Shown here: positions 16,756 through 18,279 of the stretch, piece after piece | How positions within the stretch are numbered: the stretch's first letter is position 1 | Layout: each line of letters starts with the position of its first letter | NCBI GenBank assembly: GCA_023421675.1 | Contig: JAEZTC010000009.1 | Span: 17,719 to 49,718, forward strand | Length of the DNA: 32,000 bases | Direction: 5' to 3' | Source: Bacillota bacterium | GTDB lineage: Bacteria; Bacillota; Clostridia; Acetivibrionales; JANLFN01 | The notes under the pieces: model-generated | The model's database searches: none | Told to the model about the DNA's origin: nothing | The model's input: the letters and a program-made list of their open reading frames with translations, nothing else | Position numbers and translations under genes: made by a program

Positions 16756-17064
16756 TTAGCAACATCCGCTGCTATTACTTTCATTTCCACCAGAACAATC
16801 GCAATTGGGCTCCGTACCTTTGAGCCAGCCCATAATAATTGCAGTTACACAGCCAACCCCAGGTTTTACTTCAATTGCACTAAACGGACAATTTTTTGAA
16901 CATGCTCCGCACTCCATGCAGCTATCTTTATCTATGATTTCAGCTTTTCCACCTTTATAGCCTAATACCTTATGCGGACATACTTCTATACATTTTGAAC
17001 ATCCAGTACATCTATCTGCATTAAGTTTTAATGATGTTACATTCTTTAAATATCTATGTCTCAT
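16756..17064 (-). CDS. hgcB: Mercury-methylation ferredoxin HgcB
   Basis: Two CX2CX2CX3CP motifs (CTGCSKCIEVCP, CMECGACSKNCP), an internal GVGC, and a terminal vicinal pair ...SSGCC. It lies directly after hgcA. The second ATG (17064) has better spacing from AGGAGGG; the first ATG is at 17067. Confidence 0.85.
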   Translation of the reverse strand: MRHRYLKNVTSLKLNADRCTGCSKCIEVCPHKVLGYKGGKAEIIDKDSCMECGACSKNCPFSAIEVKPGVGCVTAIIMGWLKGTEPNCDCSGGNESNSSGCC

Positions 17065-17073
17065 CATTCCCTC

Positions 17074-18279
17074 CTAAATAATTATAATATTATTGGCCAG
17101 GATCAGGATTATCCCTGCACTTATAGAAATTATAACCGCAGGAACTGCAATTTTCATTTCCTTCAAAACTCCCGATAATGAAGTATATGTAGATGAACCT
17201 GTAAATTTCATTGCATAATAGGCAGATATTGCAGGTAAGGTAAACAAGTATCCCAGAGCCTTCATTATACCGTAATCCGGTTCATTCGGGTAACCATTAA
17301 GAATATTTAAAAAAACAGCCCAAAGCATGCCAAGTAGCCATCCTTTCCAGGCGAATGCCTTACCGGGAATCCATGGGAGTAAAACCGGGGTTAGTACGCA
17401 ACCCGTAATCAGTGCACCTATGAAAGCATAAAAATCAACAAGTCCAAAAGGCCCTAATCCTATAACATTTAATAAAAAGAGTACCCCAAAAACCATTAAA
17501 GAAGTTTTGTAAGTACTTACAATTTCTATCGGCGTTAAAACTAACCTGTTATATAAATTAAATCTAACGGTCCTCATTTCTTCGTCTGCTTTAAGCCCTG
17601 ATGAAATAAATCCTTTAATATCTCTCGCTCTTACTGGTCCATAGATTACTTTGAAACCAGTGTGTTTTGAAACCTCATGCGCGCTTACACCAGGTGCACC
17701 CAACTGCGGCAGTATAACAACCCTGTGTGAAACAATCTTCAACAATTTTGTTTTAGTAATACGGGCTATCAGCTCATTAGTACCAAATGTACCTTTACCG
17801 GCTGCACACCAGACATTAACACCCTTTGTATCAAGAACCAGAATCCAGGCACTTAGTCCTGAAAGTTCCTTTCTCAGCATATCAAAGGTTAATTTATAAT
17901 TTGCGGTTACAAGTACCGGTGAATTATCGTCAGGATTCCCAACAGCATAAATACCCGGATTAATCTTATACTTCATCCTGTTAATTCCCCAGCGGACCTT
18001 CCATGCACCAAGTATATCCTCAAACATTAATCTTGTTGAAACCTGCGGTACTATACCAGCTGGTGTCTGAATTTCGCCTGTTATCCAACTGTCTTTTTTA
18101 TCATATTGTGTAATGGGCTTAGAAGTGCATTTATTATCAACACCGCAACAACAAGATTTTTCATTTTTACCGGAATTTTTAGAACCATTTTTATCAGGTT
18201 CATTTATTTTTTGTTTTACTTTAAGCACAATTGCTTTCTTTACATTATCATCTGAATTATTAATGGTTTTATTATTCAC
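17074..18279 (-). CDS. hgcA: Mercury-methylation corrinoid protein HgcA
   Basis: The diagnostic cap-helix motif is LDTKGVNVWCAAGKGTFG, preceded by PVLVTANYKLTFDMLRKEL. The C-terminal part has about five hydrophobic helices. The GTG start lies 8 nt after GGAGG. The TAG stop lies inside the hgcB Shine-Dalgarno sequence. Confidence 0.9.
   Translation of the reverse strand: MNNKTINNSDDNVKKAIVLKVKQKINEPDKNGSKNSGKNEKSCCCGVDNKCTSKPITQYDKKDSWITGEIQTPAGIVPQVSTRLMFEDILGAWKVRWGINRMKYKINPGIYAVGNPDDNSPVLVTANYKLTFDMLRKELSGLSAWILVLDTKGVNVWCAAGKGTFGTNELIARITKTKLLKIVSHRVVILPQLGAPGVSAHEVSKHTGFKVIYGPVRARDIKGFISSGLKADEEMRTVRFNLYNRLVLTPIEIVSTYKTSLMVFGVLFLLNVIGLGPFGLVDFYAFIGALITGCVLTPVLLPWIPGKAFAWKGWLLGMLWAVFLNILNGYPNEPDYGIMKALGYLFTLPAISAYYAMKFTGSSTYTSLSGVLKEMKIAVPAVIISISAGIILILANNIIII

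Follow-up and report, generated by a model that had tools for sequence, protein, structure and literature searches.

The window analysed here, a stretch of 32,000 nucleotides (contig JAEZTC010000009.1 of assembly GCA_023421675.1, positions 17,719 to 49,718), belongs to an uncultured Clostridia-class member of the Bacillota that is known from metagenomes only, and it carries on its minus strand the two adjacent genes hgcA (17074..18279) and hgcB (16756..17067). We consider it very probable that this locus is an unfused hgcA-hgcB operon, which is functional and whose products convert Hg(II) to methylmercury. Both proteins are full-length orthologues in which every residue known as required is retained. 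An earlier note on the same DNA had described a complete hgcA-hgcB pair, and family scores, motifs and gene linkage agree with this description. The assignment of the organism to the methylmercury producers is a prediction from sequence.

Family assignment of HgcA and HgcB

Evidence for this assignment is provided by the profile searches, which had been proposed in the earlier note and placed both proteins above the curated NCBIfam equivalog cutoffs. HgcA reached 494.8 bits (cutoff 275, E = 1e-148) with the model NF040863 (HgcA_corrinoid), its residues 77-398 being aligned to model positions 1-324 of 325, while HgcB reached 128.2 bits (cutoff 99, E = 7.9e-38) with NF040864 (HgcB_ferredoxin), where residues 5-103 covered all 93 model positions (1-93). 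Furthermore, HgcA is 59-74% identical to proteins named HgcA by the NCBI Prokaryotic Genome Annotation Pipeline (PGAP), and all its nearest neighbours carry this PGAP name. In the community protocol, the "high-stringency" class comprises one of six HgcA cap-helix motifs and a C(M/I)ECGA motif of HgcB on the same contig (PMC10087281); the locus falls into this class, with NVWCAAGK and CMECGA on one contig.

Structure of HgcA and distinction from paralogues

The cap helix was judged by the pattern N(V/I)WC(A/S)(A/G/S)GK with the conserved Cys, which is Cys93 in the experimentally studied archetype, Pseudodesulfovibrio mercurii (Desulfovibrio desulfuricans) ND132 (PMC7305189, PMC11588087). Direct reading of HgcA reveals the sequence GVNVWCAAGKG, in which the motif NVWCAAGK occupies residues 155-162 (17794..17817, minus strand) and follows this pattern; Cys158 (codon 17806-17808) is the predicted cobalt-thiolate ligand. 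In an alignment of 119 sequences, N155, V156, W157 and C158 are invariant. The motif is situated in the corrinoid-binding domain, as the earlier note had claimed, since the Pfam family CdhD (PF03599) matches residues 105-224.

The multi-helix membrane domain that had been recognized before was recovered as well. AlphaFold secondary structure (DSSP) and hydropathy delimit a transmembrane domain of five long helices at residues 242-400 (17080..17556, minus strand), which the family model spans completely; the individual helices lie at 242-272, 280-299, 309-327, 338-362 and 368-400 according to DSSP. Three of these transmembrane helices are clearly supported by hydropathy, whereas the other two are less hydrophobic. 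The structure model was built with 119 homologues and displays a mixed alpha/beta domain followed by the five helices, at a predicted local distance difference test score (pLDDT) of 79.2 and a predicted template modelling score (pTM) of 0.71; it was used instead of a model from a 15-sequence alignment, which was unusable (pLDDT 49.7). When the PDB was searched by fold, the top match was the ND132 HgcAB model 9a0b_A (E = 2.2e-20, 42% identity, 326 columns), followed by CFeSP (corrinoid iron-sulfur protein) corrinoid domains with E = 5e-7 to 3e-5 over approximately 130-150 columns. A sequence search of solved structures returned CFeSP large subunits only (E = 4e-11 to 1e-6, HgcA residues 104-229); no HgcA was found among solved structures in this way, and 9a0b appeared only via the fold search.

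The latter matches, all of them to CFeSP large subunits, raise the question whether the two open reading frames (ORFs) encode non-methylating paralogues, i.e. a CFeSP-type corrinoid protein plus a generic ferredoxin, or a fused-type HgcAB-like protein. The Pfam domain of HgcA points in the same direction, because CdhD is a shared family. The CFeSP large subunit (AcsC/CdhE; PDB 2h9a, 2ycl, 4c1n, 4djd, 9fzy) indeed possesses a Rossmann-like C-terminal corrinoid domain with a cap helix that is homologous to the N-terminal one of HgcA, and Foldseek reported 22-27% identity between HgcA and CFeSP (2h9a, 4c1n and 4djd among the matches). However, the alignment with CFeSP is restricted to residues 104-229, it shows Thr at the position of Cys158 and it leaves out the membrane domain. 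CFeSP, which works in acetyl-CoA synthesis, has neither the cap-helix Cys nor a membrane domain, and its N-terminal [4Fe-4S] domain and TIM-barrel domain are absent from the HgcA studied here. The CFeSP gamma model scored 80.7 bits (cutoff 306) compared to 494.8 bits for HgcA, and no acs or cdh genes occur among the profiled ORFs of the window. The fused HgcAB-like proteins (NF043039, e.g. Pyrococcus furiosus Q8U2U9) have the corrinoid domain, the membrane domain and the ferredoxin motifs in common with our pair, but they form a single polypeptide, and tested carriers of such proteins do not methylate Hg (PMC10087281). The window contains two separate genes split by a stop codon, whose products scored only 200.7 bits (HgcA) and 55.7 bits (HgcB) with the fused model, both under its cutoff of 285, so this candidate was rejected. 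The profile scores and the unfused architecture thus contradict an origin from paralogues, which we regard as extremely improbable. Placement among non-methylating paralogues had been named in the earlier note as a finding that would speak against its reading; the competing profiles favour HgcA over both the fused and the CFeSP models.

HgcB and the junction of both genes

HgcB is a dicluster [4Fe-4S] ferredoxin that is also matched by Pfam Fer4 families. Its two [4Fe-4S] motifs, CTGCSKCIEVCP at residues 20-31 and CMECGACSKNCP at residues 50-61, both read CX2CX2CX3CP, and the protein ends with ...SSGCC, hence the two clusters and the terminal SGCC Cys pair of the initial description can be read in the sequence. 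In total, Cys residues occur at positions 20, 23, 26, 30, 50, 53, 56, 60, 73, 89, 91, 102 and 103. In HgcB of ND132, the positions of the Cys in clusters A and B are identical, as is that of the essential Cys73 (Cooper et al. 2020, PMC7305189), and Cys102/Cys103 correspond to Cys94/95 of the ND132 protein, whereas Cys89 and Cys91 are extra. These features are widely conserved: at least two Cys within the last 10 residues were found in all 77 complete HgcB ORFs from related loci, and C[MI]ECGAC in 76 of them.

The coordinates and ORFs given in the earlier note proved exact, with the correction that both genes are located on the minus strand. The 401-residue ORF of hgcA begins with GTG and ends with the stop codon TAG at 17074-17076. 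Its start is credible, given the Shine-Dalgarno sequence GGAGG 8 nucleotides ahead of the GTG (18288..18292, minus strand, direct reading) and the N-termini of homologues, which align there. On the minus strand, the junction to hgcB reads ATT TAG GAG GGA ATG ATG. The Shine-Dalgarno sequence of hgcB (GGAGG, 17070..17074, minus strand, direct reading) includes the final base of the hgcA stop; the stop had been described as sitting inside the Shine-Dalgarno sequence, and the overlap does exist, but it amounts to just 1 nucleotide (GGAGG) or 2 nucleotides (AGGAGG). The 103-residue ORF of hgcB stands as described, though the start is probably the second ATG (17064), which gives 102 residues, because the first ATG (17067) is just 2 nucleotides away from the Shine-Dalgarno sequence and the second one 5 nucleotides. 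HgcB is likewise listed with 102 residues in the public gene calls for identical contigs.

Depending on the start, 6-9 nucleotides separate the hgcA stop from hgcB, which follows immediately downstream on the same strand as a separate gene. An HgcB homologue comes after hgcA in 78 of 80 related loci. To judge from this arrangement, the two genes probably form a bicistronic unit. Since the stop codon overlaps the Shine-Dalgarno sequence, a coupling of hgcB translation to hgcA termination is plausible, as far as spacing alone can indicate.

Comparison with ND132 and the proposed mechanism

The HgcA and HgcB proteins of ND132 are the experimental archetype (Parks et al. 2013). The window shares with ND132 the two separate adjacent genes, the corrinoid-binding domain with five transmembrane helices, the cap helix N(V/I)WCA(A/G)GK with its essential Cys and the C-terminal Cys pair of HgcB. 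In contrast, the HgcA proteins are only 42% identical, and the cap Cys is found at position 158 instead of 93 because of a Cys-rich N-terminal extension of approximately 65 residues. Moreover, the HgcB tail is longer and bears an extra CDC motif, and an arsR2-type regulator is missing upstream whereas a complete ars operon exists downstream, which ND132 does not have beside hgcAB.

The proposed mechanism is transferred from the work on ND132 (PMC7305189, PMC11588087). By analogy, cobalamin would be bound in the cytoplasmic Rossmann-like domain of HgcA, where Cys158 of the cap helix would occupy the lower axial position ("Cys-on"). Co(I) would be methylated with S-adenosylmethionine (SAM); Zheng et al. 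2024 (PMC11588087) name SAM as the methyl donor of HgcAB, whereas methyl-tetrahydrofolate was formerly assumed. Subsequently, the methyl group may move onto thiolate-held Hg(II), and Cys73 of HgcB together with the flexible Cys102/Cys103 would probably bring the Hg(II) and take away CH3Hg+. For the reductive reactivation of Co(II) to Co(I), HgcB would contribute a low-potential electron from its two [4Fe-4S] clusters.

Among named relatives, the nearest HgcA comes from the Bacillota metagenome-assembled genome (MAG) bin149 (GCA_030705825.1, 74% identity). Pelotomaculum isophthalicicum also reaches 74%, over 86% of the query, followed by Desulfitobacterium/Desulfosporosinus with 69-73% over the core, Pseudobacteroides cellulosolvens with 63% and Clostridium kluyveri with 59%. 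Gilmour and colleagues reportedly tested Hg methylation in 2013 in some isolates of Desulfitobacterium and Desulfosporosinus. Like other HgcAB pairs of Bacillota, ours belongs to the same sequence clade and has the hgcA-hgcB order and the close spacing; those pairs are frequently linked to arsR, acr3 and arsC. Unlike most of them, which have an ArsR-family gene immediately upstream, it has recD2 as its upstream neighbour.

Weighing the assignment

Several points weigh against a functional methylation locus. HgcA is only 74% identical to its nearest named relative, and methylation is predicted from sequence. Cobalamin supply, expression and Hg uptake lie beyond what the window can show and cannot be judged from it. 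The hgcAB transcript abundance is reported to be a poor predictor of the methylation rate (bioRxiv 10.1101/2022.10.17.512643). The counts of synonymous and nonsynonymous differences between strains, given below, are too few to decide alone, and an N-terminal extension of about 76 residues in HgcA is not represented in the family model. Furthermore, the placement of HgcA is based on competing profile scores, not on a tree with paralogues.

Another possible reading is that the genes are intact yet inactive in situ, because they are unexpressed, starved of cobalamin or hampered by the N-terminal extension. The 203-nucleotide region upstream of hgcA yielded no convincing sigma-70 promoter match, the dedicated upstream regulator of 43 of the 80 relatives is absent here, and even ND132 expresses HgcAB at a very low level (PMC11588087). 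However, both genes have a strong Shine-Dalgarno sequence, and the region between recD2 and hgcA contains no terminator-like structure, its folding being no more stable than in shuffled sequence (z = +1.3), so that read-through transcription is possible. The N-terminal extension is common to most close homologues. Moreover, the ORFs are intact in two strains of approximately 98% identity, with mostly synonymous differences, and the exact HgcA protein occurs on 7 metagenome contigs. Hence, inactive genes appear quite improbable to us.

The strain comparison deserves some detail. The DNA of the window is approximately 98% identical to scaffold_10 of ENA ERZ28600368, which spans 260.7 kb, and identical to no fetched contig, whereas the exact HgcA sequence was detected on at least 7 metagenome contigs. 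Between the window and the approximately 98%-identical strain, hgcA differs by 8 synonymous and 2 nonsynonymous changes and hgcB by 2 and 0, respectively; these small numbers are consistent with purifying selection.

For a functional hgcA-hgcB operon, the consequences are modest. The HgcAB pair is a known family, a standard annotation pipeline would name the pair automatically, and the understanding of mercury methylation is unchanged by this locus. With it, the list of predicted methylmercury producers grows by an uncultured fermentative-type Clostridia lineage, and this helps when hgcA surveys of the source metagenomes are read.

The downstream ars operon and a possible native function of HgcAB

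Downstream of hgcB, three genes on the same strand resemble an arsenic resistance operon. The first, arsR (16237..16572, minus strand), encodes an ArsR/SmtB metalloregulator with the ELCVCD motif (NF033788 85.6 bits, cutoff 55; PF01022). It is followed by acr3 (15144..16220, minus strand) for an arsenite efflux transporter (TIGR00832 446.1 bits, cutoff 282.8) and by an arsC-like gene (14708..15142, minus strand) for an arsenate reductase of the low-molecular-weight phosphatase fold, whose 144-residue ORF scored 92.2 bits with PF01451 and contains the P-loop CTGNSCRS. With three NCBIfam arsenate-reductase models the latter reached 110-121 bits, all under the cutoffs of 158-215, and its start is likely an internal ATG that results in 134 residues as in public gene calls.

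A pattern scan downstream of hgcB detected a terminator-like hairpin, AUACUCCUUUCC-AGUAACAC-GGGAGGAGUAU followed by UUUAUUU (16681..16711, minus strand), with a computed RNA folding energy of -21.9 kcal/mol and z = -2.9. Next to it, an operator-like palindrome ATGCGTATAA-ccgt-TTAAACGCAT (16593..16616) ends 21 nucleotides upstream of the arsR start. This sequence, ATGCGTATAAccgtTTAAACGCAT, represents a near-perfect 10-4-10 inverted repeat, is unique in the window, occurred in none of 100 shuffles and is likely the ArsR operator, as judged from its sequence. A second copy upstream of hgcA was not found, even when up to 3 mismatches were allowed. From these elements we infer two putative transcription units, hgcAB and arsR-acr3-arsC; the hgcAB unit probably ends at the hairpin terminator before a separately controlled ars operon.

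Given this neighbourhood, the genes could be true hgcAB whose native role is the handling of arsenic or other metalloids together with the ars operon, or halomethane dehalogenation, with methylmercury as a by-product. Such a role is compatible with our assignment, because it concerns the native substrate only. It is suggested not only by arsR-acr3-arsC directly downstream on the same strand but also by the related loci, in which Acr3 or ArsC occurs within approximately 6 kb in 32 of 80 cases and hgcA is directly preceded by a gene of the ArsR family in 43 of 80. In ND132, hgcAB answers arsenic via ArsR2, and knockout of hgcAB increases the sensitivity to As(V). The linkage to ars genes was also found by McDaniel et al. 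2020 (PMC7438021), and dechlorination of CCl4 by heterologously expressed HgcAB was described in a 2026 preprint. On the other hand, co-location is not shared function, and the details of this locus argue for separate control: the terminator-like hairpin lies between hgcB and arsR, the operator-like palindrome is not repeated upstream of hgcA, and the ArsR of the window is 75% identical to one ars-operon ArsR but only 32-45% to the regulators located upstream of hgcA in relatives. For these three reasons, there is no sign of a shared regulation of hgcAB and ars, and we therefore regard a native role of this kind as possible but rather unlikely.

Regulation by an ArsR2-type protein as in ND132 was considered and rejected, because the sole arsR is situated downstream of hgcB behind the hairpin. 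No arsR exists directly upstream of hgcA, where the 203-nucleotide gap to recD2 holds no ORF. The association of hgcAB with ars genes, downstream ArsR-like genes included, has already been published (McDaniel et al. 2020; Gionfriddo et al. preprint), and the window is a variant gene order of this known pattern, namely hgcAB, hairpin and arsR-acr3-arsC without an upstream regulator. The order arsR-acr3-arsC-hgcAB was found in approximately 8 of 80 related loci. With its variant gene order, the locus could be used as a natural test whether hgcAB expression needs an ArsR-type repressor.

The closest relative offers a hint on the origin of this arrangement. In GCA_030705825.1 (89% identity in FtsH, 74% in HgcA), contig JAUZPR010000098.1 breaks off within recD2, and an arsR-like ORF stands at the beginning of contig JAUZPR010000011.1, which starts approximately 650 nucleotides upstream of hgcA. 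These contigs may be neighbours in the genome, with the resulting order recD2-arsR-hgcA-hgcB; if they adjoin, the lineage of the window lost the upstream arsR.

The Cys-rich N-terminal extension of HgcA

Residues 1-76 of HgcA (18052..18279, minus strand) lie outside the family model and form a Lys/Asn-rich extension with Cys43-45 (SCCCG) and Cys51, which is predicted to be disordered. Its residues 1-51 have pLDDT values below 50 in the AlphaFold model. Cys-rich extensions were counted in 100 of 118 homologues, the closest ones with a cap-helix motif, and each of these 100 extensions contains CC, CCC or CxC. In 63 of the 100 extended homologues, CC occurs once more close to the extreme N-terminal end, which is not the case in the HgcA of the window. 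The SCCCG extension is common to HgcA from Clostridium, Pseudobacteroides and MAGs, whereas it is absent in the Desulfitobacterium-type proteins; the HgcA of Desulfitobacterium/Desulfosporosinus lacks the N-terminal extension, and matches to it begin at query residues 69-81.

In the literature searched, which had limited coverage, no description of a Cys-rich N-terminal extension of HgcA was found, and we mention it as a lead rather than as a claim of novelty. We can only speculate, at a low level of confidence, that the N-terminal tail of this clade acts as a functional metal-handling element that, for example, picks up a soft metal(loid) such as Hg(II) and passes it on to the active site. 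Such a role would resemble the one that has been suggested for the C-terminal, likewise Cys-rich tail of HgcB. If true, the tail together with the frequent ars linkage would suggest that the native function of clostridial HgcAB is directed at metal(loid)s.

Genomic context and variation

The gene order in the window is gdpP-rplI-dnaB-tilS-hpt-ftsH-metK, an HD-domain gene, a hypothetical gene, recD2, hgcA-hgcB, arsR-acr3-arsC, SDR, DUF3795 and an ECF sigma gene, followed by a polysaccharide biosynthesis cluster, i.e. hgcAB has a chromosomal context. The best named relatives of FtsH are found in Bacillota, Clostridiales and Clostridia MAGs (83-89% identity) and in Anaerobacterium chartisolvens (79%). 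Together with the SAM-I riboswitch before metK and the GC content of approximately 36%, which displays no anomaly at hgcAB, they bear out the Clostridia-type organism proposed in the earlier note. The patchy distribution of hgcAB mentioned there also has a counterpart among the relatives: a genome with an 83%-identical FtsH shares the synteny gdpP-rplI-dnaB-tilS-hpt-ftsH-metK but carries neither hgcAB nor ars genes after recD2.

The product of recD2 (18483-21047, minus strand) is only 31-34% identical to the syntenic RecD2 in two related genomes, and a small ORF upstream of it (21138-21488, minus strand) is approximately 49% identical, whereas the flanking MetK and FtsH reach 82-89%. Owing to this drop in RecD2, the variable region that carries hgcAB-ars seems to start at recD2 or the small ORF. 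Signs of a mobile element were not found: the window contains no tRNA genes and no GC anomaly, and there is no integrase or transposase among the profiled ORFs of at least 100 residues.

The SAM-I (S-box) riboswitch (24264-24366, minus strand, 87.3 bits) is located upstream of metK, approximately 6 kb from hgcA. It is the only Rfam match in the window, i.e. no cobalamin riboswitch was found. A functional link between hgcAB and metK, which encodes SAM synthetase approximately 4.7 kb upstream, was considered and rejected. MetK is near hgcAB in none of the 80 related loci, and the proximity therefore looks coincidental.

Finally, the ECF sigma gene (12528-13331, plus strand) diverges from the otherwise approximately 98%-identical strain by 12.4% at the DNA level, with 40 nonsynonymous changes. 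Divergence is only 0-3.7% in its neighbours and 0-0.1% in the adjacent glycosyltransferase genes (9714-12367); this contrast suggests local recombination or a hypervariable spot at the ECF sigma gene.

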